The notes under the pieces are model-generated. The model saw only the letters and a program-made list of their open reading frames with translations. It was not told the DNA's origin and ran no database searches. Both the position numbers and the translations under genes were made by a program. Below, one piece after another: positions 1 through 47,043 of a stretch of DNA of 47,043 nucleotides. Source of the stretch: Bacillota bacterium. GTDB lineage: Bacteria > Bacillota > Clostridia > Christensenellales > CAG-138. Where the stretch lies: the NCBI GenBank assembly GCA_016288175.1, contig JAEEYN010000152.1, positions 1-47,043 of the forward strand. Direction: 5' to 3'. Each line of letters starts with the position of its first letter. The first letter of the stretch is position 1.

Positions 1-119
1 ACGACAGCAATCTCAGGATCGCACCCAGCTTTCCTCCGCTTGACGAGCTTGAAAAGGCAATGCAGGTCCTCTGCGTATGCATCAAGCTGGCCGCCGCCGA
101 AAAGCTGCTTAGCAAATAA
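1..119 (+). CDS. 3' end of an upstream CDS (C-terminus ...[38 protein letters not shown]), possibly a PLP-dependent aminotransferase
   Basis: An open frame runs from the window edge to TAA at 117-119. The C-terminal RIAPSFP...EL motif resembles the ends of class-I-fold aminotransferases as I recall them. Only 38 residues are visible. Confidence 0.35.
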
Positions 120-151
120 AGAATCAAATTATTCATTCGGAGGAAAAAACA

Positions 152-1192
152 ATGATAAAAATGATGGATGCTCTTGTTAAGACGGAAGCGGGAAAGGGCC
201 TTACCCTCATGAAGGTCCCCGTTCCCGAAGTTCACACCGGTGAAGTACTTATCAAGATCCATAAGACTGCGATCTGCGGCACTGACGTACATATCTACAA
301 CTGGGATCCTTGGAGCCAGACCCACGTTAAGCCTCCCGTTACGATTGGTCATGAATACGTTGGCGAAATCGCCGCGCTTGGCGATGGAGTTACAGGGCTT
401 GAGATCGGTCAGCTCGTTTCCGGCGAAGGCCACATCACCTGCGGCCACTGCCGCAACTGCCGCAGCGGCAAAAGCCACCTCTGCGCAAAAACCGAAGGCG
501 TTGGCGTTCAGCGCAACGGCGCATTCGCTGAGTATATCTGCATTCCCGCAAGGAACGTTATCCCCGTAACTTGGGATATCCCCGAGGATATCATTTCCTT
601 CTTCGACGCATACGGCAACGCGACTCACACCGCGCTGATGTTCGATGTTATCGGCGAGGATGTTCTCATCACCGGCGCAGGTCCGATCGGCATGATGGCC
701 GCCGCAATCTGCAAGCACAACGGCGCGCGCAAAGTTGTCGTTACCGACATCAACGATTACCGTCTCAGCCTTGCGAAGAAGATGGGCGCGACCCGCGTTG
801 TCAACACCATGAAAGAAAAGCTCGAGGATGTTATGGCCGAGCTCAAGATGACCGAAGGCTTCGACGTCGGTCTTGAAATGAGCGGCAGCGGCATCGCTCT
901 CAACCAGATGATCTCCGTCATGCGCAACGCCGGTAAGGTCGCGCTGCTCGGCATCGCGAAGCCCGGCACCGCTGTCGACTGGAATGAAGTCATCTTCAAG
1001 GGTCTGACCCTGCAGGGCATCTACGGCCGTCAGATGTTCGAGACCTGGTATAAGATGGGCGCAATGGTCGAAGCCGGCCTCGACCTCACTCCGATGATCA
1101 CTCACCGCTTCAACTACCGCGATTTCGAGAAGGGCTTCGAGGCCATGAACAGCGGCGCAAGCGGCAAGGTCGTTCTTGACTGGACCAAATAA
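152..1192 (+). CDS. tdh: L-threonine 3-dehydrogenase (Zn-dependent MDR family)
   Basis: 346 aa. Has [26 protein letters not shown] and the structural-Zn motif [10 protein letters not shown], with a GAGPIG Rossmann motif. GGAGG lies 8 nt upstream of ATG 152. It is followed by kbl, the classic tdh-kbl pair. Confidence 0.93.
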
Positions 1193-1213
1193 ACCGAAAA
1201 GGAGAATACATAC

Positions 1214-2395
1214 ATGAAACAGGCTTACGAATTCTTCCGCAAGGAGCTCGACTCCATCCGCGAAGCGGGTACCTGGAGAGAAGAGCGCATCATTACCACC
1301 GAGCAGCGCGCAAGGATCGACACCACGAAGGCAAAGGGCGTTCTCAACATGTGCGCCAACAACTACCTCGGCCTTGCCAACAATCCCGAGATCATCGCCG
1401 CCGCAAAGGCCAGCTATGAGAAGTGGGGCTACGGCCTTTCCTCCGTCCGTTTCATCTGCGGCACTCAGCAGATTCATAAGGAGCTTGAAAGGAAGCTCGC
1501 CGATTTCCTCGAGATGGACGACTGTATCCTCTACACCTCCTGCTTCGACGCGAACGGCGGTCTTTTCGAGACCATCCTCGGCGCTGACGACGCGATCATC
1601 TCCGATGAGCTCAACCATGCTTCCATCATCGACGGCGTTCGCCTCTGCAAAGCCAAGAGGTTCCGCTATAAGAACAACAACATGGACGACCTCCGCGCAC
1701 AGCTCGAAGCCGCAAAGGATTGCCGCATCAAGCTGATCGCGACTGACGGCGTCTTCTCCATGGACGGTATCATCGCAAACCTTCCCGCCATCTGCGACCT
1801 CGCCGATGAATACGGCGCTCTCGTTATGGTCGACGACAGCCATGCCGTCGGTTTCATGGGCGAGCACGGCAAGGGCACTCATGAGGCATGCGGCGTGATG
1901 GGTCGTGTTGACATCATCACCGGTACCCTCGGCAAGGCAATGGGCGGTGCGTCCGGCGGCTACACCTGCGCACGCCAGGAGATCATCGACATGCTTCGCC
2001 AGAAGTCCCGTCCGTATCTCTTCTCCAACACCCTCGCTCCCGCAATCTGCGCTGCTTCCATCAAGGTCATCGACATGCTGAACGAATCCACCGCGCTTCG
2101 CGATAAGGTCCACGAGAACACCAAGTACTTCCGTGAGCAGCTCGGCAAGATCGGCTTCGACGTCATCGAGAGCACCCACCCGATCGTTCCCGTCATGCTG
2201 TATGACCCGAAGATCGCTCAGGAATTCGCACGCCGTATGCTCGATAAGGGCGTATACGTCGTCGGCTTCTGCTATCCCGTTGTTCCGAAGGGCAAGGACA
2301 GGATCCGCACCCAGGTTTCCGCAGGCCACACCAAGGAAGACCTCGACTTCGCAGTCAAGTGCTTCAAGGAAGTCAAGGAAGAAATGGGTATCTGA
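1214..2395 (+). CDS. kbl: 2-amino-3-ketobutyrate CoA ligase (glycine C-acetyltransferase)
   Basis: 393 aa alpha-oxoamine synthase-type sequence with the PLP-lysine context GTLGKAMGG. It starts 21 nt after tdh, with a GGAG RBS. Confidence 0.92.
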
Positions 2396-2413
2396 TCAAG
2401 ATAATATATTTTC

Positions 2414-2440
2414 AGAAGGGCGGCAAATTGCCGTCCTTCT
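2414..2440 (+). terminator. Hairpin downstream of kbl (12-bp stem with one G-U, 3-nt loop); probable terminator or insulator
   Basis: AGAAGGGCGGCA-aat-TGCCGTCCTTCT. It is followed by GUGCUAUAAU rather than a clean U-run, so intrinsic termination is plausible but not canonical. Confidence 0.45.
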
Positions 2441-2441
2441 G

Positions 2442-2450
2442 TGCTATAAT
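2442..2450 (+). promoter_or_regulatory. Extended -10 promoter element (TGcTATAAT) for trpS
   Basis: TG at 2442-2443 and TATAAT at 2445-2450, about 35 nt upstream of the trpS ATG. There is no good -35 at 17-nt spacing. Confidence 0.5.
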
Positions 2451-2484
2451 CCAAATAATTATTTTAAAGAAGGAGGGTCCTGAT

Positions 2485-3474
2485 ATGGACAAGAAAATCA
2501 TCCTCAGCGGTATTAAACCCACCGGAATTCCCACACTCGGCAATTACATAGGGGCTCTCCGCAACTGGCGCGAAATGCAGCAGGACGACAAGTACTGCTA
2601 TTACATGGTTGCCGACATGCACGCGCTGACCGTCCGCAATGACCCAGAAGAACTCCGCCGGCAGACCCGCTCCATGGCAGCTCTTTTGATCGCCTGCGGC
2701 ATTGATCCGAACCGTTCGCCGTTGTTTATTCAGAGCCACGTGCATCAGCACGCGGAGCTCTCGTGGCTCCTTGGCTGCACTACCTACATGGGCGAACTGA
2801 ACCGCATGACACAGTTCAAGGATAAGTCCGCGAAGCATGCCGACAACATCAACGCAGGTCTTTACACTTATCCCGTGCTCATGGCCGCCGATATCCTTAT
2901 CTACGGCGCGCACATGGTGCCCGTTGGCGACGACCAGAAGCAGCATGTTGAGCTTGCGCGCAACATCGCGATCCGTTTCAACAATGCTTTCGGCGAAACA
3001 TTCATCGTTCCCGAACCCGTCATGCCGAAATTCGGCGCAAGGATCATGGGTCTGCAGGATCCGGAGCACAAGATGAGCAAAACCGACACGAATCCGAACG
3101 GTTATATTTCCATGCTCGACGATCCCGACGTCATCATGAAAAAATTTAAGAAAGCCGTCACCGACTGCGAACCGACGATCGCTTTTGCGGAAGGCCGCTA
3201 CGGATGCAACAACCTCCTGACCATTTACTGCGCATGCACCGGCAAAACGATGGATGAGGCGGTAAAGGATTTCGAAGGCTGCGGCTACGGCAAGCTCAAG
3301 GTCGCTGTTGCGGAAGCCGTTATCGCCGAGCTGGAGCCCATCCAGGCGGTCTATAAGCAGTACATGAACGACAGCGCCGAACTCGACAGGATCGTTGCAA
3401 AAGGTGCGGAGCAGGCAGGGGAGCGCGCTCAGCTTACTCTGGATGCAGCATACAAGGCCGTCGGCCTCAGATAA
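2485..3474 (+). CDS. trpS: Tryptophan--tRNA ligase
   Basis: The ORF track begins at 2359, but AGGAGGG (2471-2477) precedes ATG 2485 (MDKKIILSGIKPTG...). Class-I signatures are TLGNYIG (HIGH-like) and KMSKT. About 329 aa. Confidence 0.93.
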   Translation: MDKKIILSGIKPTGIPTLGNYIGALRNWREMQQDDKYCYYMVADMHALTVRNDPEELRRQTRSMAALLIACGIDPNRSPLFIQSHVHQHAELSWLLGCTTYMGELNRMTQFKDKSAKHADNINAGLYTYPVLMAADILIYGAHMVPVGDDQKQHVELARNIAIRFNNAFGETFIVPEPVMPKFGARIMGLQDPEHKMSKTDTNPNGYISMLDDPDVIMKKFKKAVTDCEPTIAFAEGRYGCNNLLTIYCACTGKTMDEAVKDFEGCGYGKLKVAVAEAVIAELEPIQAVYKQYMNDSAELDRIVAKGAEQAGERAQLTLDAAYKAVGLR

Positions 3475-3490
3475 TCAAATCAATAAAACA

Positions 3491-3530
3491 AAACGAGCTG
3501 TGCGGATCCGCACAGTTCGTTTTCATTTTG
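3491..3530. terminator. Bidirectional rho-independent terminator between the convergent trpS and PurM-like genes
   Basis: About 12-bp stem ACGAGCTGTGCG-GAUC-CGCACAGTTCGT centred on GGATCC. It is flanked by an A-run (AAAACAAAA) on the left and TTTCATTTT on the right, so a U-tract follows the hairpin on both strands. Confidence 0.8.
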
Positions 3531-3539
3531 GTAAACGGA

Positions 3540-4508
3540 TTATTTTACGACTTTATAGATCTCGTCGGCGTCAGGCGGTTCAACGATCGTCCCGTCGGTA
3601 AGGCGGACTCCTTCGCCCTGCGCGCGGCCGATGATCTTCGCTTCGATGCCGATACTTCTGAGGCCTTCGACCATCTCTTCGCCGTTCGGGCAGGTGATGA
3701 GCATGCAGCCGCTTGAAATGAGCCGCAGCGGATCGATACCCGTCGCGGCGCAAAGCTTGGCGGTCACGGGATGCACGGTTATCGCACCCTTATCTATTAC
3801 AAGACCGACGCCGCTTGCATCGGAAAGCTCCCACGATGCGCCGAGAATGCCTCCTTCGGTCGCGTCGTGCATCGCCGTCGCACCGTTGTCGGCAGCGTAC
3901 AGGCCTTCCTTGACGACGTTTGTCCGCGCCGCAAATGCATGCGCACAGGCGATCTCGTCATCGGTCAGAATGTTATGGATATCTTCAACGCAGTCCGCAA
4001 TGATATTCGCGCCTTCAAGCCCGGCGTGCTTTGTCATTATCAGATAATCTCCTTCGCGCATTCCGCGGGGGGAAACAGCGCCGTTTTTGCCTTCCCGCGC
4101 AATAACGGTCGTGCAGGTCACGATTCGATTAACGGCGTTGGTGATTTCCGTATGACCTCCGATCACGTCGACATTGGCGTTATCCGCCGCCTCGATAAGC
4201 TCGTCCATCAGGTCCGAGATCTCTTCTTCCGTCACGGACGGCGGCAGCAGGAAAGTCACCATCAGCCCGATCGGCTCTGCGCCGGATGCCGCAGCATCGT
4301 TGCAGCAAACGTTGACGGACAGCGCCCCGATTCGCGTTTGTGCGGCGGTTATCGGGTCGCATGAAAGGATCGTCAAACGGTCGCCGATATCAACGGCGGT
4401 GCAGTCAACGCCGATCCCGGGCGCCATCACGACTTCGCTTCTGTTATGCTTGATCTTGCTGAGTATCAGCCTGTCAAGCTGTTCATTTGTAAGTTTACCG
4501 ACTCTCAT
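3540..4508 (-). CDS. AIR synthase-related (PurM/HypE/ThiL superfamily) protein
   Basis: 322 aa. The N-terminal GIGVDCTAVD...SCDPIT and GGHTE motifs are typical of the PurM-like ATP-binding fold. The start lies 1 nt after the ligA stop. Confidence 0.75.
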   Translation of the reverse strand: MRVGKLTNEQLDRLILSKIKHNRSEVVMAPGIGVDCTAVDIGDRLTILSCDPITAAQTRIGALSVNVCCNDAAASGAEPIGLMVTFLLPPSVTEEEISDLMDELIEAADNANVDVIGGHTEITNAVNRIVTCTTVIAREGKNGAVSPRGMREGDYLIMTKHAGLEGANIIADCVEDIHNILTDDEIACAHAFAARTNVVKEGLYAADNGATAMHDATEGGILGASWELSDASGVGLVIDKGAITVHPVTAKLCAATGIDPLRLISSGCMLITCPNGEEMVEGLRSIGIEAKIIGRAQGEGVRLTDGTIVEPPDADEIYKVVK

Positions 4509-4509
4509 T

Positions 4510-6471
<1,962 letters not shown>

Positions 6472-8775
6472 TTATTCTCCTTTCAGCGCTGAAAGCGGCG
6501 CATATGCGACGGCAAGCCTGCGCGACCCGCCTTTGTCGAAGTTGATTGTTATTATTGCTGCCGGACCGGTACCGGAAATCCCCGCGACCGTACCTTTCCC
6601 GAATTGGGGATGCATAACGCGGTCACCCGGTTTGAAGTTCACGGTATTTGTTTTGCTCTTGGGAGCAGAAGGCGCGGTGTATGCGTTTTTCTTCTGTGCG
6701 GTTCCTTTTTTGTCGAGACCGTTCAGTTTTCGGATCTGCTCGATCACGTCCTCGCCGAACATTCCGTTTGGGAAACCGCTTCGCTGACTTCCGCCCGTCC
6801 CTCCGTACTCGCTTCCGGAACGAGCATATGCGCTTCCGAAGGAATTGCGCTTCATCGGCGTCTTTTCGGGATCGATCAATTCCATTTCCTCGAGGAAAAT
6901 CGAAGGATCGTTGCGCTGCGGTCTGCCGTACAGGGTGCGTTGCCTTGTATTGAGCAAAAACAGTTTTTCCTTCGCCCTTGTAACGCCGACATAGCAGAGC
7001 CTGCGTTCCTCTTCAAGGCGGTTTTCCTCTTCCTTTGAGCGTTCGGAAGGGAAGACGCCCTGTTCCATTCCGGGCATGAAAACAACTGGGAATTCAAGGC
7101 CTTTTGCGCAGTGGAGCGTCATCAGTTTGACTGTTCCGTCGCTTTCGTCGACATTATCCGCTTCCGAATTCAGCGCAGCTGTTTCGAGGAAGCTTTGCAA
7201 AGCGTCGGAATCCGGCGGAAGCTGCTGTTCATGCTCCTTCATCGCACCTACAAGTTCTTCGATATTCTGCTGCCTTGTCTCGAGTTTATCATCCCCGAGC
7301 GCGGCAAGATGATCCGCAAAGTTTATCCGTTCTATGATGTATTCCGCAAGCTCCGAAAGGCCGAACTCATAGCGCTTCGCAAAGAGTTCCTTCATCAGCT
7401 CAATGAACGGACCGATCTTTGCCGCGATTTTTGCGGGAAGAACATCTGGCGTTATCGAAGCCATGAACATCGACATATCGTTCATCGCCGCAGCGGATTC
7501 GATCGATTTGACCGTCGTATCGCCGATGCCGCGTTTCGGAACATTTATGATGCGTTTGAACGCAACATCGTCGTTCGGGTTCGCGATCAGCTTCAGATAA
7601 CCGAGCAGGTCCTTGACTTCCTGATAGGAATAGAATCTCATGCCGCCGATAACCGAGATGGGGATCCCGTAACCCGTCGTCAGAACGGATTCGATCACAC
7701 GGCTTTGTGCATGGGTACGGTAAAGAACAGCGAAATCGTTATAGCTGAGCCTGTCGAAACGATGCATGCCTGCGATCGTGCGCGCGATCGTATAAGCTTC
7801 ATCTCGCTCTGTGTCGACCGTCAGGAGTTCGACGCGTGAACCGCCGGCCTTTTCCGTCCAGAGTTTCTTGCTTTTTCTGCCCTTGTTGTTGCGTATGACC
7901 TTGTTTGCGCAGTCGAGGATCGCCTTTGTGGAGCGGTAGTTCTGCTCAAGTCGAATCACCTTTGCGCCTTCGAAATCCTTCTCGAATTCGAGGATATTGC
8001 GGATATCTGCGCCTCGCCAGCCATAGATGCTCTGGTCATCGTCGCCGACGACGCAGATGTTGCGGTGCTCGCTGCAAAGAAGCTGGATCAGCTTGTACTG
8101 CGGGAAGTTTGTATCCTGGTACTCATCAACAAGAACATATTTGAACCTGCGTCTGTATTTTTCGAGAATATCCGGATTCTCGGCCAGAAGGCGCACAGAA
8201 AGCAGAAGCAGATCGTCGAAATCGAGTGCGTTGCATTCCCGCAGTTTTTTGTTGTATGCGCGAAGGATGTCGACAAGCGTTCCGCCATCCGATCCCGATT
8301 CGAAAAGATAGGCTTCCGGCGAATCCGCGGAGTTTTTTGCCTCGCTGATCCTCGAGCGCACCATCGCTTTCGGAAAACGCTTCTCATCGATGTTCTGCTG
8401 TTTAATGATATCCGCGATCACGGAGTTCTGGTCCTGATCATCGTAGATCACGAAGCGGTTATCATAGCCGAGGCGATCGATATCGAAACGCAGTATCTTG
8501 GCGCAGAAGGAATGGAAAGTCGTGACCCACATATCCGAATCCGGAGTTTCGAGAAGTTTATCCACGCGCTCTTTCATTTCCTTCGCCGCTTTGTTGGTGA
8601 AGGTAACGGCAAGGATCGCCCAGGGCGGAACATTATGATTCAAAACCAGATTCGCGATGCGGTACGTCAAAACGCGGGTCTTGCCGCTGCCCGCTCCCGC
8701 AAGCACCAGCAAAGGCCCGTCGACCGTCATTACGGCTTCGCGCTGTTCTTTATTGAGTAAACTAAGATTCAGCAT
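6472..8775 (-). CDS. pcrA: ATP-dependent DNA helicase PcrA (UvrD family)
   Basis: 767 aa. Has Walker A GAGSGKTRVLT, DEYQDT, and a C-terminal Tudor-like tail (VMHPQFGKGTV). The pcrA-ligA order is typical of Firmicutes. Confidence 0.95.
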   Translation of the reverse strand: MLNLSLLNKEQREAVMTVDGPLLVLAGAGSGKTRVLTYRIANLVLNHNVPPWAILAVTFTNKAAKEMKERVDKLLETPDSDMWVTTFHSFCAKILRFDIDRLGYDNRFVIYDDQDQNSVIADIIKQQNIDEKRFPKAMVRSRISEAKNSADSPEAYLFESGSDGGTLVDILRAYNKKLRECNALDFDDLLLLSVRLLAENPDILEKYRRRFKYVLVDEYQDTNFPQYKLIQLLCSEHRNICVVGDDDQSIYGWRGADIRNILEFEKDFEGAKVIRLEQNYRSTKAILDCANKVIRNNKGRKSKKLWTEKAGGSRVELLTVDTERDEAYTIARTIAGMHRFDRLSYNDFAVLYRTHAQSRVIESVLTTGYGIPISVIGGMRFYSYQEVKDLLGYLKLIANPNDDVAFKRIINVPKRGIGDTTVKSIESAAAMNDMSMFMASITPDVLPAKIAAKIGPFIELMKELFAKRYEFGLSELAEYIIERINFADHLAALGDDKLETRQQNIEELVGAMKEHEQQLPPDSDALQSFLETAALNSEADNVDESDGTVKLMTLHCAKGLEFPVVFMPGMEQGVFPSERSKEEENRLEEERRLCYVGVTRAKEKLFLLNTRQRTLYGRPQRNDPSIFLEEMELIDPEKTPMKRNSFGSAYARSGSEYGGTGGSQRSGFPNGMFGEDVIEQIRKLNGLDKKGTAQKKNAYTAPSAPKSKTNTVNFKPGDRVMHPQFGKGTVAGISGTGPAAIITINFDKGGSRRLAVAYAPLSALKGE

Positions 8776-31438: not shown

Positions 31439-32338
31439 TCAGGTCATGAATTTCGGTTGGCTGTTCAGATACGTATCGCGAAAATGCTGGACCATTGTCG
31501 CAATAAACTCCGAGTTTGTCGGCTTGCCTTTCGAAGCGTCGACCGTATTCCCGAACAGATAATACTGCATATACGGACTGCTTCTTTCCCATGCGCTCTC
31601 GATCGAATAGCGCACTGCCTTTTCGACAGCGGCAGGAGAGGTTTTGGTGAGCTCGGCCGTGTACCTGTAGAGGGTATTGAGCCTGTTGTCCATTCCGAGC
31701 ACCTGCATATAGATGATGAGCTGCAGATAGCCCGTCCCCTTCTGCTTCGGGTCGAGACCGATAGGTTCGAGCAGTGTTTCGGTAATACCTTTGAGAAGGC
31801 GTTTATCCAGTTTGCCCTCGTTGAAGAAAAGGACGTCGCTGATGTAGCTTCTCATGTTCGAAAGCACTTCCTGCTCTTTTCTCGCAAGGAATTCGGAATA
31901 TGCATCGAACACCCGTTTCGCGCTTTCCTCAACGCTTTGCGAATACTCTATCATTCCGTCGATGCCGCAGCTTTCGCAGATGCCGGCGAGCGAAGCCGTT
32001 GATTTTTCGCAGCAGATAAAATAACGGATATCCATGCAGAACCTGCTCAGGCGCAGTTTCGAGATCAGCGTTATCGGATCGACATCCGGAAGCGTCTGAC
32101 TGATGATCACTGCATCCGGGATCCTCAAAACAAGATGAGGCCAGATCTCCGCACCGAGACGAACCGGCTCGTCGGTATCGAAATACCGGCCGAGCGCCGC
32201 ATTCAGGCAGCGGGCAAATTCTCTCTCCGTTTCGCCGCACGATGACTGCGGGTCCGACTCATGGCCGTCCTCACAGATTATCAGCACATACGGTTTTAGG
32301 CCGAAGTTATGTCCGTTCTTCGCTGCGGTCTTGCTCAT
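31439..32338 (-). CDS. Spo0A-like transcription factor: Spo0A C-terminal DNA-binding domain fused to a degenerate (pseudo-)receiver domain
   Basis: 299 aa. The C-terminal half matches Spo0A_C hallmarks (KGTGYLQ..., SPAAVEKAVRYSIESAW, KGKPTNSEFIATM). The N-terminal half has receiver-like topology, but the phospho-acceptor context reads PDAVIISQTLPDVD (Ser where Asp is expected), and the conserved Thr and Lys positions are also not recognisable. GGGAGG RBS, 21 nt after the htrA stop. Confidence 0.75.
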   Translation of the reverse strand: MSKTAAKNGHNFGLKPYVLIICEDGHESDPQSSCGETEREFARCLNAALGRYFDTDEPVRLGAEIWPHLVLRIPDAVIISQTLPDVDPITLISKLRLSRFCMDIRYFICCEKSTASLAGICESCGIDGMIEYSQSVEESAKRVFDAYSEFLARKEQEVLSNMRSYISDVLFFNEGKLDKRLLKGITETLLEPIGLDPKQKGTGYLQLIIYMQVLGMDNRLNTLYRYTAELTKTSPAAVEKAVRYSIESAWERSSPYMQYYLFGNTVDASKGKPTNSEFIATMVQHFRDTYLNSQPKFMT

Positions 32339-32359: not shown

Positions 32360-33763
32360 TCAGTGAACGCCGTTGATGCCGTATTTCGCTCCGCCGTATT
32401 CGTCATTCAGTATTTTGCTGCCGATTTGGTTGAAATCGCCGATCGTGATCTGCACTTCAAGCGTTTCGCCGTCCCGGAATACGCTCATGGTAATAATATC
32501 GCCGATCGATTTTGTGCGGATGTATTCGCCGAGGACATCATTGCTCGTTATCGCAACACCGTCGACAGCCGTGATTATATCGTCTACTTTAAGTCCGCCG
32601 AGATGCGCCGGACCGTTTTCTATTACCGTATAGACGAGCGCACCGGTCGGTATGCTGTAGGTGTTTGCCCTGTCCTCATCGATGTAGATCGTTGAAACGC
32701 CGATACCGGGCCGCTCGATCCCGCCGTCGTTGATGATCTCGCGGGCAACATCCATTGCTGTGCCGATCGGTATCGCAAAGCCTAGGCCTTCCGCATTGAT
32801 CGGGTTGCCGTCTTCGTCATAGCTTGCAATAACGGTTTTTGCCGAATTGACACCTATCACGTTACCGTTCATATCGAACAGCGGACCGCCGCTGTTTCCG
32901 GGGTTGATAGCGGCGTCGATCTGGATATAGGAATTGCGCAGTCCGTCGATCACAACGCTTCTTTCGACAGCGCCGACCATTCCGAATGTTGCGGTAAAGC
33001 TCAGTTCATCGCCGGTCGGGTGACCGATCGTGAATACAAAATCGCCTGTTCTGACTTTCGAAGAGTCACCGACGGTCAAAACGGAAAGCATGTTCGTTTC
33101 TTCGATCTTCAGCACTGCGATATCGGTTTTCTTGTCCGCGCCGATAAGGCTCGCTTCGCACTGATTCTTGTTATAGGCAGTGACCATAAAATGGTCCGCA
33201 TCATTAACGACATGAGCATTCGTGAGGATATAGCCGTTTGCGGAGATGCAGAAACCCGTTCCCGTGCCGACAAGGTTCGACGGACGGACGCTGCCGCTGT
33301 AGCTTTCGATTATCACAACGCCGAGAACATTACGGCTGTAAAGCTCCGGTATCCCTGCGGTTGAGGATGTCGGATCGCCGCCGGAGTTTCCGCCCGGGTT
33401 CGGGGCCTGAGTCGGTAAATCGCTGCCGGCGGGGATGGGCTCGAGAGTCGGCAGAACAGTTGCGGGCGCCTGAGTTGCGGTCTCCTTATCCGTTTGAGCG
33501 GATTTGGAGAAGTAATTACCGTACCGTGCAAGAAAAATCACGCCGGCAACGAGCATTCCGACAAGGAGAAAAGTGATCGCTGTGGTAAGGATTGTTCCGA
33601 CAGCAGGAACATTCTTGTGGATGATCGTTGTTTCGGTGTGCGTACCTCCGCCGTCCTTCCAGATCACGCTTCGCTCCATATCTCCGTCGCCGTTTTTTTC
33701 GAACTTCATGTCCGACAGCAGCTCGGTTTCGTTTTTTCCGTTCTTTTCGTTGAATTCATCCAT
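32360..33763 (-). CDS. htrA: Membrane-anchored HtrA/DegP-family (S1C) serine protease with a C-terminal PDZ domain
   Basis: 467 aa. Has a TM segment (AVGTILTTAITFLLVGMLVAGVIF), a Pro/Thr-rich linker, the catalytic triad contexts TNAHVV, TDIAVLK and GNSGGPL, and a PDZ domain (GALVYTVIENGPAHLGGLKVDDIITAVDG). Confidence 0.9.
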   Translation of the reverse strand: MDEFNEKNGKNETELLSDMKFEKNGDGDMERSVIWKDGGGTHTETTIIHKNVPAVGTILTTAITFLLVGMLVAGVIFLARYGNYFSKSAQTDKETATQAPATVLPTLEPIPAGSDLPTQAPNPGGNSGGDPTSSTAGIPELYSRNVLGVVIIESYSGSVRPSNLVGTGTGFCISANGYILTNAHVVNDADHFMVTAYNKNQCEASLIGADKKTDIAVLKIEETNMLSVLTVGDSSKVRTGDFVFTIGHPTGDELSFTATFGMVGAVERSVVIDGLRNSYIQIDAAINPGNSGGPLFDMNGNVIGVNSAKTVIASYDEDGNPINAEGLGFAIPIGTAMDVAREIINDGGIERPGIGVSTIYIDEDRANTYSIPTGALVYTVIENGPAHLGGLKVDDIITAVDGVAITSNDVLGEYIRTKSIGDIITMSVFRDGETLEVQITIGDFNQIGSKILNDEYGGAKYGINGVH

Positions 33764-33793: not shown

Positions 33794-35260
33794 TTATCCG
33801 TTGATTCTTTTGACCGGTGTCTGTGCCCTCTTCAGGGTAAAAGTGAACCTCGTTTCACGGTCGTCGGAAGAGACATTGATCTCTTCCCCATGCTGATCCA
33901 TGATCAGCTTTACGATCGAAAGACCGAGGCCCGTTCCGGAGCCGGTCGAGTATGTGTGCGCCTTTTCGGCTTTATAGAAGCGGTCAAAAACCTTCGGAAG
34001 ATCATCCGCCGGTATTGCCGCGCCGTTGTCCGTTACGCTTACCCTTGCGGCATGCTTGTCTGCAATCAGCAGCACTCCGAGCCTGCCTCCGCTTTCCGGA
34101 AGGAATTTGATCGCGTTGTCAATGAGGTTATGAAGCACCTGGCCGATCCTGTTTTCATCGGCATCCACAAAAACCGGTGCTCCGGGGAGCTGCGCATTGA
34201 CTTCGATCTTCTTGGCGTTGATCCTGCTTTCATAGGTGATCAAAACTCTGCCGATAAGTTCCGTGATATCGAACACCGTTCTGTTCAGCTTCGACTGACC
34301 GGATTCGATCCTTGCGATATCGAGAAGATCGTTGACCATGCCCGTCATTCGTTTGTTTTCATCGAGAACGATGTTGATGTATTTGCTGTGCTCCTCTTCC
34401 GGAATAATGCCTTCGTCCATCGCCTCGAGGAAACCGCGCATCGACGTCAGCGGCGAGCGCAGTTCGTGTGAAACATTTGCGACGAAGTCACGCCTTGTTT
34501 TCTCAAGTCCGGCAACTTTATCGGCCATTTCGTTGAAGCTCTCGCCGAGCTTTCCAAGCTCGTCCTTCTGTTTCAGGCGTATGCGTTTTTTGTAGTCGCC
34601 GCGGGAAAATGCGTTGACCGTATTCGTCATTATCGTTACGGGTTTGGTGATCCTCCTTGTGATGATATAGGTGATCACCGCAGTGACGACCGTCGCCGCC
34701 AGCGCCGCAGCAAGGATTTCGTTATACAGCTCGCCGAGCATCCTGTAGATATCGTCCATATTGTAATGAAGAACGATGGTCCCGAATGTTTTCCCGTCAT
34801 CGGAGCTGATTGGGCTGCTCAGGGTCATTGTTCTTGAACCGATATAATCCGACAGCACGTCATAATAGAAGGTGTAGCTGCCGCTTTTTTCGCTTCTTGC
34901 GTTCTTTGTGATCTCGTAGAAATCGGTTTCAACGCTGACGCGCCATTTATCGGAAGTCTGGTAATCGAAGAAACTTGCCTTGCCGATCGTTTCATCGTCA
35001 AAATAAAGCTGCAGCAGCGCGTCGAACTGTTTGACGATCGCAAAGATCTTCTCTCGCGCGATCGGCCTTTTGTCGGAGGACATGTATTCGTCTGTCGCGA
35101 TCTGGTTGATCTCCTTGGCTTCGCGGATCAGGTTTTCCTTTGTGACGTTCAGATAATGGTTGCGCGAAATCATGCCGGACACCAGGCCCAGCACTGCGAT
35201 CACCAGTATTTCCGCCGCAAGATAGGAAGCGAGCATCCTTGAAAACAAGGTTTTGAACAT
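33794..35260 (-). CDS. Sensor histidine kinase (two TM segments, HAMP, HisKA, HATPase_c)
   Basis: 488 aa. Has H-box SHELRSPLTS, N-box HNLIDNAIKF, G1 DNGAAI and G2 GTGLGLSIV. An extracytoplasmic loop of about 150 aa lies between the TM helices. Confidence 0.92.
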   Translation of the reverse strand: MFKTLFSRMLASYLAAEILVIAVLGLVSGMISRNHYLNVTKENLIREAKEINQIATDEYMSSDKRPIAREKIFAIVKQFDALLQLYFDDETIGKASFFDYQTSDKWRVSVETDFYEITKNARSEKSGSYTFYYDVLSDYIGSRTMTLSSPISSDDGKTFGTIVLHYNMDDIYRMLGELYNEILAAALAATVVTAVITYIITRRITKPVTIMTNTVNAFSRGDYKKRIRLKQKDELGKLGESFNEMADKVAGLEKTRRDFVANVSHELRSPLTSMRGFLEAMDEGIIPEEEHSKYINIVLDENKRMTGMVNDLLDIARIESGQSKLNRTVFDITELIGRVLITYESRINAKKIEVNAQLPGAPVFVDADENRIGQVLHNLIDNAIKFLPESGGRLGVLLIADKHAARVSVTDNGAAIPADDLPKVFDRFYKAEKAHTYSTGSGTGLGLSIVKLIMDQHGEEINVSSDDRETRFTFTLKRAQTPVKRING

Positions 35261-35276
35261 TCGGGATCCGCCTAAA

Positions 35277-35969
35277 TCAGTCGTTCACAACGAATTTATA
35301 TCCGACGCCCCAAACTGTCAGAATCTGCCAGGATGGGTTTTCACCGAGACGCGTACGCAGGCGTTTGATATGAACGTCGATCGTTCTGCTGTCCTTGCTG
35401 AATTCAAAGCCCCAGACTGCGCTGAGGATCTGGCCTCGGGTCAGCACCTGCTCCTTATGCTGCACAAGGTAGCTCAAAAGTTCAAACTCCTTATGCGGCA
35501 TCGGTTTCGGCTCGCCGTTCACCGTTACGGAATAATTCTCGAGATCGAGGCGAATGTCGCCGGCAGTCAGGAAGCGTTTATCCGAAGCCTCTGCGGACTG
35601 CCCGCCCGCGCGGCGGAAAACGGCACGTATCCTCGCAACCAGTTCCTTGGAATCGAACGGTTTGACGATATAATCATCCGCGCCGAAGTTCAGGCCCTGG
35701 ATCCTGTCGGAAGTGTCGCCCTTTGCAGTGAGCATGATAACGGGAACGGAGCTTATCTGGCGCAGCTTTTCGAGAATCTCCCAGCCGTCCATGCCCGGAA
35801 GCATGACGTCAAGGATCACAAGGTCGGGCTTGCTGTCCTCGAAGGTCGGAAGAGCATTCATGCCGTTTTTGCATGTTACAACATCATAGCCCTTACTACG
35901 CAGATAAAGATTCAGGATCTGACAGATCTTTTCGTCGTCGTCAACAACAAGTATTTTTTCGTTTTCCAT
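35277..35969 (-). CDS. OmpR/PhoB-family response regulator
   Basis: 230 aa. Has a complete receiver (VVDDD, LVILDVMLPGMDG, MLTAK, VKPF) and a winged-helix output domain (RTIDVHIKRLR, VWGVGYKF). Confidence 0.94.
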   Translation of the reverse strand: MENEKILVVDDDEKICQILNLYLRSKGYDVVTCKNGMNALPTFEDSKPDLVILDVMLPGMDGWEILEKLRQISSVPVIMLTAKGDTSDRIQGLNFGADDYIVKPFDSKELVARIRAVFRRAGGQSAEASDKRFLTAGDIRLDLENYSVTVNGEPKPMPHKEFELLSYLVQHKEQVLTRGQILSAVWGFEFSKDSRTIDVHIKRLRTRLGENPSWQILTVWGVGYKFVVND

Positions 35970-44157: not shown

Positions 44158-44631
44158 TTATTTGATTATAAGGTAAACAAGACCGACGATCACGGACGAT
44201 ATTATCCCATAGACGAGCACTGGGCCCGCAAACGAGAATAGCTGCGCGCCGACGCCGAGCACAAGGCCTTCACGCTTATGCTCCATTGCCGGAGAAACGA
44301 TTGAATTCGAAAACCCAGTGATAGGAACCACCGAACCTGCGCCGGCAAAAGTCCCGATGCGGTCATAAACGCCGATGCCTGTCAGAAGTGCGCCGATAAA
44401 GATCAGCACAATTGAAACAAAAGCGCCTCTCTCCTTTTCGCCGAATCCGAAAGCGATACTGCCGATATCGCCTATCAGCTGTCCGATGCAGCAGATGGCG
44501 CCTCCGACGGCAAAAGCCAAGATGCATTGCCGAAGCACCTTGCTTTTCGGAGCTTTTTTATTGACAAGCGCTCTGTACCGAGCGTGTTCAAATCGCTCTT
44601 CCGGCGTCAGTTTTCGATTCGTTTTATCCAT
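44158..44631 (-). CDS. spoVAC: Stage V sporulation protein AC
   Basis: 157 aa. It closely follows the SpoVAC pattern (FAVGGAICCIGQ, LTGIGVYDRIGTFAGAGSVVPITGFSNS, EGLVLGVGAQLF). GGAG RBS. Confidence 0.9.
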   Translation of the reverse strand: MDKTNRKLTPEERFEHARYRALVNKKAPKSKVLRQCILAFAVGGAICCIGQLIGDIGSIAFGFGEKERGAFVSIVLIFIGALLTGIGVYDRIGTFAGAGSVVPITGFSNSIVSPAMEHKREGLVLGVGAQLFSFAGPVLVYGIISSVIVGLVYLIIK

Positions 44632-44657
44632 TCTCTGCTCCGATCCCGCCCGATGCT

Positions 44658-44792
44658 TCAGCCTGCCATGACCAGTTTCGCGCCGTCGAAAGTCAGCTCG
44701 GCGCGCTGTTCTCCGGCGTTGATTGCGATCGCCGCAATGACTGCGATCAATAAAGCAATTCCCGCAAACAGCAATTTATGAAACTTCTTCAT
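44658..44792 (-). CDS. Candidate small membrane protein (44 aa), below the ORF-track cutoff
   Basis: My own translation of the minus strand gives MKKFHKLLFAGIALLIAVIAAIAINAGEQRAELTFDGAKLVMAG*. It has a basic N-terminus plus one hydrophobic helix. AAAGGA lies about 11 nt upstream. It fills most of the 214-nt gap between the sigF-like gene and spoVAC. Confidence 0.4.
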   Translation of the reverse strand: MKKFHKLLFAGIALLIAVIAAIAINAGEQRAELTFDGAKLVMAG

Positions 44793-44845
44793 TATCTTTC
44801 ACGTCCTTTCGGCTTTTGCTTTTATCTTGCGCAGCAGGAAGCTTT

Positions 44846-45394
44846 TTATTCGATTTGATCGTTTTGGCAAAACTTGTTTTTGAGCTTCTTCAAAGCGTTT
44901 TTTTCTGTTTTCGATACCGTCGGCTGCGAGACCCATAGCACAGCCGCCGTCTTTTTCTGCGTCAGTCCTCGAAAATACCGAAGGCAGATCACGGCTTTCT
45001 CGGTTTCCGAAAGTGTCTCCAGTCCCTCGCGCAGCTGCAGATTACGCAGAACTTTGGCTTCGTCATCATCAGCATCAACCGGAATGCAGATTTCGGTTCT
45101 TTCTTCAAGGCTGTCGACGGTCATCCGGCAGCTGAAGGCTGAGTTTTTTCGAAGCGCAGAGCGGATCTCGCCCTCGATATAGATGAACGCGAACGATGCA
45201 AACGGGACGTTCCTTTCCGCATCGTACTTCAGCCAGGCTTTCCAAAGCCCGAGCGAACCGTATTGAAACAGCTCGTCCTGCGGCATGCCCCGCCCGGCGA
45301 ACCTTTGCGCAACATATCTCACGAACGGCAGGAAGCTTTCCGCCGACAAAGGCCCGGCAGCGGCAGCGCTGCTGTTTTCGTTTTTTCCCTTCAC
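44846..45394 (-). CDS. sigF: Sigma-70-family sporulation sigma factor in the sigF position, unusually short (no recognisable region 3)
   Basis: 182 aa. Region 2 (DELFQYGSLGLWKAWLKYDAERNVPFASFAFIYIEGEIRSALR) and region 4 (LSETEKAVICLRYFRGLTQKKTAAVLWVSQPTVSKTEKNALKKLK) are clear. Only about 44 residues link them. GTG start with a GTGA overlap on the spoIIAB stop. Confidence 0.7.
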   Translation of the reverse strand: MKGKNENSSAAAAGPLSAESFLPFVRYVAQRFAGRGMPQDELFQYGSLGLWKAWLKYDAERNVPFASFAFIYIEGEIRSALRKNSAFSCRMTVDSLEERTEICIPVDADDDEAKVLRNLQLREGLETLSETEKAVICLRYFRGLTQKKTAAVLWVSQPTVSKTEKNALKKLKNKFCQNDQIE

Positions 45395-45819
45395 GCGTCC
45401 GCGCTCGATATCCGCTTTATCAGCCGAACGACCGTTCCCTCGGCGGGTTTCGAAAAGACCTCGACTTTATCCATGAACGCTTTCATCACGGCAAACCCCA
45501 TGCCGGACCTTTCCCCCTCCGGTCCTGTAGTGAAATACGGCTGCATCGCCTGTTCGATATCCTTGATCCCCCTTCCCCGGTCCTTGATCTCAACTGTCAG
45601 CAGATCCCCGCAGATACACATTTCGAGGGTTATGACGCCGTCGCCCATAGCGTAACCGTGTATGATAGAATTTGTGACTGCTTCGCTCACGGCTGTTCGG
45701 ACGTCCGCGAGTTCCTCCAGTGTCGGGTCAAGCGGCGCAATGAACGCCGAAACGGCGCTTCTTGCGAATGATTCGTTGACCGGTTTGCTCTGCATTTCGA
45801 TTTTGATGCGATTATTCAT
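45391..45819 (-). CDS. spoIIAB: Anti-sigma-F factor / serine kinase SpoIIAB
   Basis: 142 aa. Has the GHKL kinase motifs EAVTNSIIHG, DRGRGI and GMGFAVM. It abuts the spoIIAA stop. Confidence 0.93.
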   Translation of the reverse strand: MNNRIKIEMQSKPVNESFARSAVSAFIAPLDPTLEELADVRTAVSEAVTNSIIHGYAMGDGVITLEMCICGDLLTVEIKDRGRGIKDIEQAMQPYFTTGPEGERSGMGFAVMKAFMDKVEVFSKPAEGTVVRLIKRISSADA

Positions 45820-46134
45820 TCAGCTCACCTTATTTGTCAGTTTATAGATCCCTGCGATGCGGAGTATCTTCACGATGCTCTCGTTTGGATTGGCGATCCC
45901 TATAGTGCCGCCCCTTGCCGCCATCAGTTTATAACGTCCGAGTATAACGCCTATGCCGGAGCTGTCCATGAAGGTCACTTTGGAAAGATCGAATATGAGT
46001 TTCCGTACGCTCCTGTTCCTTCCGACCAGGCAGTCTATGCATTCGCGGATCGGTCCGGCGCTGTTTTGGTCGATCTCATCCTTCAGGAAGACCGTCAGTT
46101 CGGCGTCCGATATCCTGTAATTGAGCTTTATCAA
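45820..46134 (-). CDS. spoIIAA: Anti-anti-sigma-F factor SpoIIAA (STAS domain)
   Basis: The ORF track extends to 46320, but AAAGGAGA precedes a TTG at 46134, giving (M)IKLNYRISDAELTV... at 104 aa, the usual SpoIIAA size. The phosphorylatable-Ser motif FMDSSGIG is present. Confidence 0.85.
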   Translation of the reverse strand: MIKLNYRISDAELTVFLKDEIDQNSAGPIRECIDCLVGRNRSVRKLIFDLSKVTFMDSSGIGVILGRYKLMAARGGTIGIANPNESIVKILRIAGIYKLTNKVS

Positions 46135-46319: not shown

Positions 46320-47043
46320 ATGGAGCGAAATGATTTCGTTTTCAACGGAGTCAACGGCTCGTGCAGCGTGCTGGTCGCAGGCCGTTTCTCCGAACTCGCG
46401 CCTTTTGTCCGCGAAGCGATCCGCGGCCGCAAAGCGCTTATACTGACGGATGAAACGGTTTCGGGCATCATTCTCGGCTCCGTCACCGAAGCCGTCAGCG
46501 ATCCCTCGGCAGAGCTTTTCTCCTTCGTTATCCGTTCCGGTGAAAAAAGCAAAAGCTTTGAAGATCTCGGCTCGATCCTGACCTGCATGGTCGAACGCTC
46601 ATTCGGCCGCGGAGACGTGATCATCAACCTCGGCGGAGGAATGGTCGGCGATATCGGCGGTCTTGCCGCTTCCGTCTATATGCGTGGGATCGATTACATC
46701 AATATTCCGACAACTCTGCTCAGCATGGTCGACAGTTCCATCGGAGGAAAAACGGGAATCGATTTCGCCGGGATCAAAAACGTTATCGGCACCTTCCGCC
46801 ATCCGAAACTCGTTGCGGACGCAACGGAGTTCCTTTCCTCGCTTTCCGAGCGCGATATCCGCTCCGGTTTCGGCGAGATAGTAAAATACCGTCTTCTAAC
46901 AGGCATGGATATCCCCGAAGGATTCGAATCAGGCAGCGCGGAAAAGCTTATCGCGAACTGTGCCGCCGCAAAATGGTCCTTCGTTATTGGCGACGAATTC
47001 GACAACGGCAAGCGCAAATTTCTGAATCTCGGCCACACCTTCG
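46320..47043 (+). CDS. aroB: 3-dehydroquinate synthase, 5' part (runs off the window)
   Basis: Not in the ORF track because it has no stop. My own translation gives MERNDFVFNG...INLGGGMVGDIGGLAASVYMRGIDYINIPTTLLSMVDSSIGGKTGIDF...FLNLGHTF, which is the AroB NAD/Zn-site pattern. GGAAGGAGG RBS. Confidence 0.88.
   Translation, partial: MERNDFVFNGVNGSCSVLVAGRFSELAPFVREAIRGRKALILTDETVSGIILGSVTEAVSDPSAELFSFVIRSGEKSKSFEDLGSILTCMVERSFGRGDVIINLGGGMVGDIGGLAASVYMRGIDYINIPTTLLSMVDSSIGGKTGIDFAGIKNVIGTFRHPKLVADATEFLSSLSERDIRSGFGEIVKYRLLTGMDIPEGFESGSAEKLIANCAAAKWSFVIGDEFDNGKRKFLNLGHTF

Follow-up and report, generated by a model that had tools for sequence, protein, structure and literature searches.

Can a transcription factor of the Spo0A family stay in use once it has lost the aspartate through which the family is switched on? 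To our knowledge, Spo0A is activated by phosphorylation of Asp56 in every endospore-former that has been studied, and the kinases that initiate sporulation, the phosphorelay proteins and the phosphatases all act on this residue. Here, we analysed a 47,043-nucleotide contig (JAEEYN010000152.1, assembly GCA_016288175.1; hereafter the window) of a Bacillota bacterium placed in Clostridia, Christensenellales, CAG-138, which carries a Spo0A-like gene with GGGAGG placed 6 nt 5′ of its ATG (Table 1). The original prediction, made from the sequence without database searches, held that the product is a Spo0A-family pseudo-receiver protein, with serine in place of the phospho-acceptor, and barred from canonical phosphorylation; for its function it offered constitutive activity, control through a binding partner, or competition at 0A boxes. 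Alignments, hhalign, AlphaFold models and Foldseek support this, and we consider the gene, at a probability of roughly 0.65, to be a functional and fast-evolving descendant of a resident spo0A, whose product is a phosphorylation-independent regulator with a pseudo-receiver.

The loss is most directly seen in the phosphorylation pocket, for which we compared 24 members of the clade that contains the protein with 65 canonical Spo0A sequences, in B. subtilis numbering. By translation, the acceptor segment reads PDAVIISQTLPDVD (residues 74-87), and multiple alignment, profile-profile alignment and AlphaFold agree in placing Ser80 in the Asp56 column, so that the β3 acceptor position holds serine and no Asp, as had been claimed. 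This column is Asp in 65/65 canonical sequences and Ser in 24/24 clade members; a 25th member (L009, from the Christensenellaceae metagenome-assembled genome (MAG) Phil7) has Glu, which corrects strict invariance across the clade to 24/25. The sole survivor of the acidic pair is Glu23, aligned with Asp10 and Glu in 22 of the 24, while the Asp11 column, which follows a β1-α1 loop insertion, shows no conservation (Thr37 in this alignment of our protein). The Ile58 column is Thr in 18/24 (here Thr82), that of Thr86 is Cys, Val, Ala or Ser (Cys110), the aromatic switch Phe/Tyr105 has become Ala, Val or Ile in the clade (here Met129), and Lys108 is replaced by Tyr, Ile or Phe (Tyr132), with Lys in only 2/24. 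The Thr and Lys switch positions thus read ICCEK (residues 108-112) and IEYSQ (130-134), as proposed. In C. difficile and B. subtilis, Spo0A needs Asp10, Asp11, Asp56, Ile58 and Lys108 to dimerise and to function (10.1101/2022.02.07.479450). We infer that the protein is unable to take part in His-Asp phosphotransfer.

Ser80 is, besides Met1, the sole strictly invariant residue of the pseudo-receiver in the 24 sequences, with a mean pairwise identity of 33% between their N-domains, and the lone exception, L009, has glutamate, a classical phosphomimetic. These two observations would fit a pocket in which a Hanks-type Ser/Thr kinase phosphorylates Ser80, phospho-Ser replaces phospho-Asp and the pseudo-receiver is thereby turned on; GlnR offers a precedent for an atypical response regulator that is covalently phosphorylated on Ser/Thr (PMC12632262). 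Nevertheless, serine ranks third among the replacements at this position in aspartate-less receivers, with 15% (PMC4395418), and the pocket no longer has the residues that would hold a phosphoryl group (Thr86, Lys108 and the second Asp). In other branches of the subfamily the acceptor column contains Arg, Val, Glu or Asn, and no Ser/Thr kinase or phosphatase gene lies in any clade neighbourhood examined. We therefore think such a serine switch distinctly unlikely. As a separate observation, Cys22 and Cys109-Cys110 sit at the C-terminal ends of β1 and β4 beside Ser80 (codons at about 32273-32275, 32009-32014 and 32099-32101), and at least one Cys in columns 85/86 is common within the clade; with these positions taken from the model, a thiol- or metal-based role for the former phosphorylation pocket is conceivable.

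As modelled, the N-terminal half is a diverged receiver domain turned pseudo-receiver. It is recognisable as a receiver only by profile-profile or structure comparison: PF00072 (Response_reg) gave no match to the 299-residue protein even at E <= 1, and phmmer with the N-domain against 1.84 billion representatives found 15 proteins and no canonical receiver (one of the matches, P0148, was rejected as a spurious repeat protein). By hhalign, a clade profile of the first 150 residues matched canonical Spo0A receivers at 95.2% (E 2.9e-8, 110 columns), with Ser80 paired with the acceptor Asp. AlphaFold (AF2) predicted β1 (residues 17-21), α1 (41-49), β3 (76-80), α3 (88-96), β4 (105-110), α4 (115-123), β5 (128-131) and a long α5 (136-167), with overall predicted local distance difference test (pLDDT) scores of 82 from a mixed alignment and 78 from a clade-only alignment, about 90 across residues 41-150 with either input, and Ser80 as the final residue of β3 in both models. 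Because the clade-only control gave the same topology and confidence, we rule out that canonical sequences in the alignment imposed the fold. Foldseek placed the N-domain on solved receivers with template-modelling (TM) scores of 0.80-0.86, including PhoP (2PKX, 0.86 at 2.0 Å) and the Spo0A receiver (5WQ0, 0.81).

The C-terminus, in turn, is what ties the protein to Spo0A. The DNA-binding signatures proposed for it are present, AVEKAVRYSIESAW at residues 237-250 and KPTNSEFIA at residues 272-280, and a hidden Markov model search matched PF08769 (Spo0A_C) to residues 188-285 at E = 2e-21 and 76.4 bits against a cutoff of 25, far beyond chance; the whole protein scored 64.6 bits with the Spo0A equivalog model TIGR02875, below its cutoff of 200. 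Foldseek aligned the domain to the Spo0A-DNA complex 1LQ1 with a TM score of 0.83, a root-mean-square deviation of 2.1 Å and 34% identity. Both groups conserve 23 effector positions, of which 20 carry the same residue (among them Glu213, Arg217, Glu221, Trp224 and GKPTNxEF) and three differ in the clade (Y173T; R214K in 22/24; Y238N in 23/24). The putative recognition-helix region, PAAVEKAVRYSIESAWER, retains Glu239, Arg243, Glu247 and Trp250, residues found unchanged in every Spo0A; it has Lys240 in place of Arg214, as do 22 of the 24 clade members, a change whose value as a clade marker is weakened because two proteins (P0146 and P0147) keep Arg. Judged from sequence, the analysis shows an intact Spo0A_C DNA-binding domain.

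Could the gene nevertheless be a non-functional relic, a spo0A decaying after the loss of sporulation and open by chance? Against the 69%-identical orthologue (L092), its dN (nonsynonymous divergence) of 0.21 exceeds the 0.05-0.115 of the adjacent response regulator, kinase and HtrA genes, and Kbl and TrpS of the window are 89% and 68% identical to those of Phil7, but the Spo0A-like proteins of these two organisms are only about 34% identical. The Kbl and TrpS values place the organism near Christensenellaceae. A "highly degraded" spo0A is known from Macrococcus in the literature, and the σF of the window, described below, has no region 3. Against decay, the whole gene has a ratio of nonsynonymous to synonymous divergence (ω) of 0.12 versus the same orthologue, with 0.15 over the pseudo-receiver and 0.09 over the DNA-binding domain; these values are rough because synonymous divergence (dS) is 1.3-1.9 and close to saturation. 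The reading frames are intact and of conserved length in at least 25 lineages, 20/23 conserved Spo0A_C positions are retained, the fold is predicted with confidence, and the translational signals are tight. Both domains are thus shown to be under purifying selection and the gene not to be decaying, which makes a relic extremely improbable.

The protein is not an isolated oddity. An initial search returned about 20 proteins of 283-344 residues that match PF08769 only and stand well apart from canonical Spo0A. By neighbour-joining, the Ser clade is monophyletic in 73/100 replicates and, together with the Asp-retaining P0018, in 100/100; after further PF08769-only proteins were added, the larger subfamily had 60/60 bootstrap support, both at full length and with the C-domain alone. 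Besides the Ser clade, L009 (Glu) and P0018 (Asp), it contains P0028, P0048, P0071 and L053 (Arg, Val, Glu and Glu in the aligned acceptor column) and P0065, P0070 and P0109 (Asn, Asn and Ser). Among the 33 subfamily sequences checked, a set from before the newly found profile-search clusters, only P0018 retains Asp, the alignment being less certain for the most degenerate N-domains. The profile search listed roughly 55-65 clusters of this type at 90% identity; the boundary is not sharp, because these clusters score above or interleave with the first canonical Spo0A. Each member that has a name comes from an uncultured MAG, none from a cultured organism, and some bear the NCBI label "Spo0A C-terminal domain-containing protein". 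The subfamily is small and conserved, seems not to have been described before, and occurs in uncultured Clostridia of gut and rumen. Asp56 has also been lost independently within the canonical radiation, to Glu, Asn or Cys, in MAGs of Lachnospiraceae, Oscillospiraceae and other Clostridia (L011, L017, L030, L055, L062, L067, L088, P0060 and P0086), three of which still have the gene next to spoIVB; L067 reads DD-N-S-K and L088 DD-E-S-K at D10/D11/D56/T86/K108, in otherwise canonical-looking Spo0A.

Is the gene an orthologue or a paralogue of spo0A? In canonical loci the order is nadK-argR-recN-spoIVB-x-spo0A (L095), or spo0A has a recN-like gene on its upstream side (L094). One Asp-less subfamily member, in the Clostridia MAG RGIG5933 (L053; 5452-6519 (+), flanks 76-7702, likely start MREGLILEHRGLF), occupies just this place: upstream lie a transketolase-family gene (probably dxs), tlyA, nadK, recN and, directly before the Spo0A-like gene, an intact spoIVB (S55, 250 bits). 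Its downstream neighbour is a phosphopentomutase-like gene, which is adjacent in the P0184 branch as well (54% identity); in the cultured Sedimentibacter acidaminivorans (L041) it follows the canonical spo0A at a distance of about 2.4 kb. As this member sits at recN-spoIVB-spo0A and the downstream flank is shared, the simplest reading is descent from the resident gene, and the subfamily's most probable ancestor is the spo0A resident in an uncultured lineage of Clostridia related to Christensenellaceae.

A different relation to Spo0A would hold if a canonical, phosphorylatable spo0A were present elsewhere in the genome: the Asp-less protein would then be a second copy that competes or heterodimerises at 0A boxes and tunes the sporulation or stationary-phase regulon without itself sensing phosphate. 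Paralogues are not rare, with two spo0A genes in ten Clostridiales genomes and three in Anaerostipes hadrus (10.1101/2022.02.25.481979), and Faecalibacterium duncaniae expresses three Spo0A homologues (PMC13020158). The gene in the window is not downstream of recN-spoIVB, and none of about seven independent gene contexts of the Ser clade and P0018 adjoins recN or spoIVB. Furthermore, spoIIAB and spoVAC of the window exceed their equivalog cutoffs (188 bits versus 135 and 184 versus 164), and we know of no spore-former in which these genes occur without canonical Spo0A. Yet spoIVB lies in the flanks of only about 30% of the canonical-type loci examined, so that its absence from all Ser-clade and P0018 loci weighs little, and the RGIG5933 locus, with the downstream flank shared by the P0184 branch, argues for descent from the resident gene. 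A GTDB genome scan recovered at least one clade member (L009) and no second locus from any genome among the matches listed; in searches that were not exhaustive, the matches listed held no canonical Spo0A from the clade members' assemblies, and the canonical proteins nearest to the subfamily profile (P0202 and P0102) come from assemblies unrelated to them. A second-copy modulator is possible, though we lean against it.

The features of the window are collected in Table 1, and relatives' gene neighbourhoods were compared in flanks of up to 10 kb.

Table 1. Coordinates of the Spo0A-like gene, its parts and other features of the window
Feature	Coordinates	Strand	Basis or remark
Spo0A-like gene	31439..32338	(-)	open reading frame (ORF), 299 aa, ATG start
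Pseudo-receiver domain, residues 14-167	31838..32299	(-)	predicted (βα)5 receiver fold, degenerate active site, long α5 helix (136-167)
Glu23 codon, sole survivor of the acidic pair	32270..32272	(-)	aligns with Asp10; Glu in 22/24 clade members
Ser80 codon, position of phospho-acceptor Asp56	32099..32101	(-)	multiple and profile alignments, AlphaFold
Spo0A_C DNA-binding domain, residues 188-285	31484..31777	(-)	PF08769; Foldseek to 1LQ1
Putative recognition-helix region, residues 235-252	31583..31636	(-)	alignment
Recombinase-like protein, 446 aa	28779..30116	(-)	PF07508 22.5 bits; phrog_95 integrase E 1.4e-9; kept in L090, L092, L093
Amidohydrolase-like pseudo-enzyme, 435 aa	30128..31435	(-)	SsnA-like, 251 bits versus cutoff 444; start 3 nt past the Spo0A-like stop
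HtrA/DegP-type serine protease with PDZ	32360..33763	(-)	Trypsin_2 120.6 bits, PDZ_2 52.4 bits, TIGR02037 276.6 bits
Canonical kinase/response-regulator pair	33794..35969	(-)	same order in L090, L092, L093
Histidine kinase	33794-35260	(-)	HAMP/HisKA/HATPase_c
OmpR-type response regulator	35277-35969	(-)	Response_reg 115 bits and Trans_reg_C
Sporulation cluster spoIIAA, spoIIAB, σF-like, spoVAC	44158-46134	(-)	equivalog models
σF-like sigma factor, 182 aa, in the spoIIAA-spoIIAB-sigF position	44846-45394	(-)	alignment to 1L0O
spoIIAA	45820-46134	(-)	TTG start after AAAGGAG; ORF listed to 46320 scores below cutoff
kbl-trpS	1214-3474		
ORF beside spoVAC, 198 aa	43450-44046		only a weak Myb-like match
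Inverted repeat TTTTGTC-N14-GACAAAA	46225-46252	(-) reading	in the 186-bp region between spoIIAA and a divergent gene

The original prediction had named two co-encoded proteins as possible partners, and here only part of the claim stands. All on the minus strand, genes for a 2-thiouracil desulfurase, the response regulator, the kinase and HtrA/DegP precede the Spo0A-like gene, and the amidohydrolase-like and recombinase-like genes, miaB, mutS, mutL and miaA follow it. The gaps are 21 nt from HtrA to the Spo0A-like gene, 3 nt from there to the amidohydrolase-like gene and 11 nt from this to the recombinase-like gene, and the seven genes from the desulfurase through the recombinase-like gene keep their order in L093, L092 and L090. 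HtrA upstream of the Spo0A-like gene is conserved in these closest relatives only, whereas the amidohydrolase-like gene, adjoining in the window, L092, L090 and L001, alone remains adjacent at 43-45% identity (L001) and is thus co-inherited that far. Its product is a pseudo-enzyme, because the HxH metal motif is lost in all four orthologues (HSR here; HSN, FSY and SVK in the others); the β5 His region is lost as well (LLEN versus HLHE in 3LNP). The upstream protease was considered as SpoIVB and rejected, since it is HtrA/DegP (family S1C, not S55) and matches the SpoIVB model through its PDZ domain only.

The recombinase-like gene is probably the last of the co-directional block. Serine recombinases share an N-terminal Y-x-R-x-S-x-x-x-Q, and YFAACEQ at the N-terminus of this protein suggests from its letters that the catalytic Ser is missing; it would then be the third degenerate protein in a row. 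A prophage origin of the locus was rejected in view of the housekeeping flanks, the synteny across relatives and the fact that the Spo0A-like protein matches only PHROG families of unknown function. One of these, phrog_37855, a profile of 278 positions, is matched by residues 74-287 (E 4e-12), that is, by receiver part and effector, and because of this match some phages may carry near full-length Spo0A-like genes beyond the truncated ones described before (PMC10294663). More distant loci share other genes: in L006 (6669-7895, adjacent; the locus of P0020) and in L009 (3959-5185, one gene off; Phil7) the Spo0A-like gene is preceded by one for Peptidase_M29, and kbl-trpS, present in the window, also lies near the Spo0A-like gene of L009. 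These shared placements look like traces of an older common gene order.

Does the lineage still sporulate under such a regulator? Conceivably, the Asp-less protein is the only Spo0A of a genome that still runs a sporulation-type programme, entered without His-Asp phosphorylation. This possibility would rest on spoIIAA-spoIIAB-σF and spoVAC in the window and on spoIVB in relatives, and control would then come from transcription of the gene, from a ligand-sensing pseudo-enzyme partner, or from both, or else from modification of Ser80. We regard it as unlikely; if true, it would be a natural exception to phospho-gated Spo0A in all endospore-formers. No spoVAD or spoVAE stands beside spoVAC. The σF-like factor aligns to σF in regions 2 and 4 (1L0O residues 38-104 and 178-243), and 18 residues stand in for about 73 of region 3; because a 53%-identical relative (P0241) has the same length, the short σF is a feature of the lineage and not an assembly error. 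Upstream of spoIIAA, each arm of the inverted repeat in Table 1 contains TGTC, half a 0A box, and the divergent gene, which starts at 46321, resembles aroB by eye.

For the reading that we prefer, a phosphorylation-independent regulator descended from resident spo0A, we propose that the protein would act at 0A-box-like DNA as a Spo0A-type transcription factor whose output is set by the amount of protein made or by protein partners. Expression may be governed through its place 21 nt behind htrA and downstream of the canonical kinase/response-regulator pair. The best candidate for a partner is the co-inherited, catalytically dead amidohydrolase-like protein, which might serve as a ligand sensor by analogy to AmiC-AmiR. 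Several points weigh against this proposal. Binding to DNA, the oligomeric state and the lack of phosphorylation are all predicted; the 0A box TGTCGAA occurs 10 times in the window where 9.4 are expected, which is no enrichment; and synonymous divergence near saturation blurs the measure of selection. A promoter and terminator scan of 27.0-36.7 kb gave nothing above shuffled controls, so the case for an operon is made by spacing and synteny. The amidohydrolase pairing is absent in distant clade members (L004, L006, L008, L009 and L091, whose neighbours are unrelated) and therefore cannot be a general mechanism of the clade. Lastly, the near-invariance of Ser80 exceeds the needs of a dead site and hints at a role that our explanation does not cover.

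What is at stake is a whole conserved subfamily, apparently derived from resident spo0A and sometimes beside spoIVB, that has lost Asp56 and keeps its DNA-binding domain under selection. Should these organisms lack any further Spo0A, a master regulator would have been rewired to work without the phosphorelay, and this would show what role Spo0A plays in lineages that reduce or repurpose sporulation. As a practical consequence, the presence of spo0A or Spo0A_C, used as a predictor of sporulation in gut and rumen MAGs, misreads such genomes. Pseudo-receiver surveys that start from PF00072 pass over the whole class, because domains of this type are too diverged for PF00072. In the open-access literature we found no account of the subfamily or of its place at the spo0A locus, and no Asp-less Spo0A that had been characterised; Spo0A in non-sporeformers has been reported, and a supplementary table based on Pfam 26 puts the aspartate-less proteins at 7 of 391 Response_reg~Spo0A_C sequences, without discussion.

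Set against known systems, the protein shares with canonical Spo0A of B. subtilis and C. difficile (PDB 1QMP/5WQ0 and 1LQ1) the two-domain layout, the Spo0A_C fold, a homologous receiver fold and the GKPTNSEF motif, and, through the subfamily member L053, the recN-spoIVB-spo0A locus. It differs in lacking the acceptor Asp, Asp11, Thr86, Phe/Tyr105 and Lys108, in the β1-α1 loop insertion, in an N-domain identity of only 13%, in falling below the TIGR02875 cutoff and escaping PF00072, in the clade's effector changes Y173T, R214K and Y238N, and in a gene that is not beside spoIVB in the window. A Spo0A effector freed from phosphorelay control has been met before: the sad67 allele, said to have been described by Ireton and colleagues in 1993, is reportedly a constitutive N-terminal deletion of Spo0A. 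Phages likewise carry truncated, effector-only spo0A (PMC10294663). Unlike either, our protein keeps a full-length N-domain under selection, and its gene is chromosomal in a syntenic housekeeping context.

Closer in kind are the aspartate-less receivers and pseudo-receivers (ChxR, RitR, FrzS, HP1043, AmiR), a well-described group (PMC4395418, PMC12632262). The resemblance lies in a receiver fold without phosphorylatable Asp, in Ser as a common replacement, in the first acidic residue that is often kept (compare Glu23) (PMC4395418), and in the phosphorylation-independent behaviour to be expected. The pocket Lys is, however, still present in 70% of such receivers, and each residue of the Y/T pair in about 61-66% (PMC4395418); the clade has lost all of them. 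In AmiC-AmiR, a ligand-binding protein controls an aspartate-less regulator (cited in PMC4395418), and our locus may be compared with it in that an aspartate-less regulator is encoded beside a co-inherited non-enzyme protein of a ligand-binding fold. Partner fold and output domain are unrelated, and the pairing is missing in distant clade members, so the likeness is offered as an analogy only.

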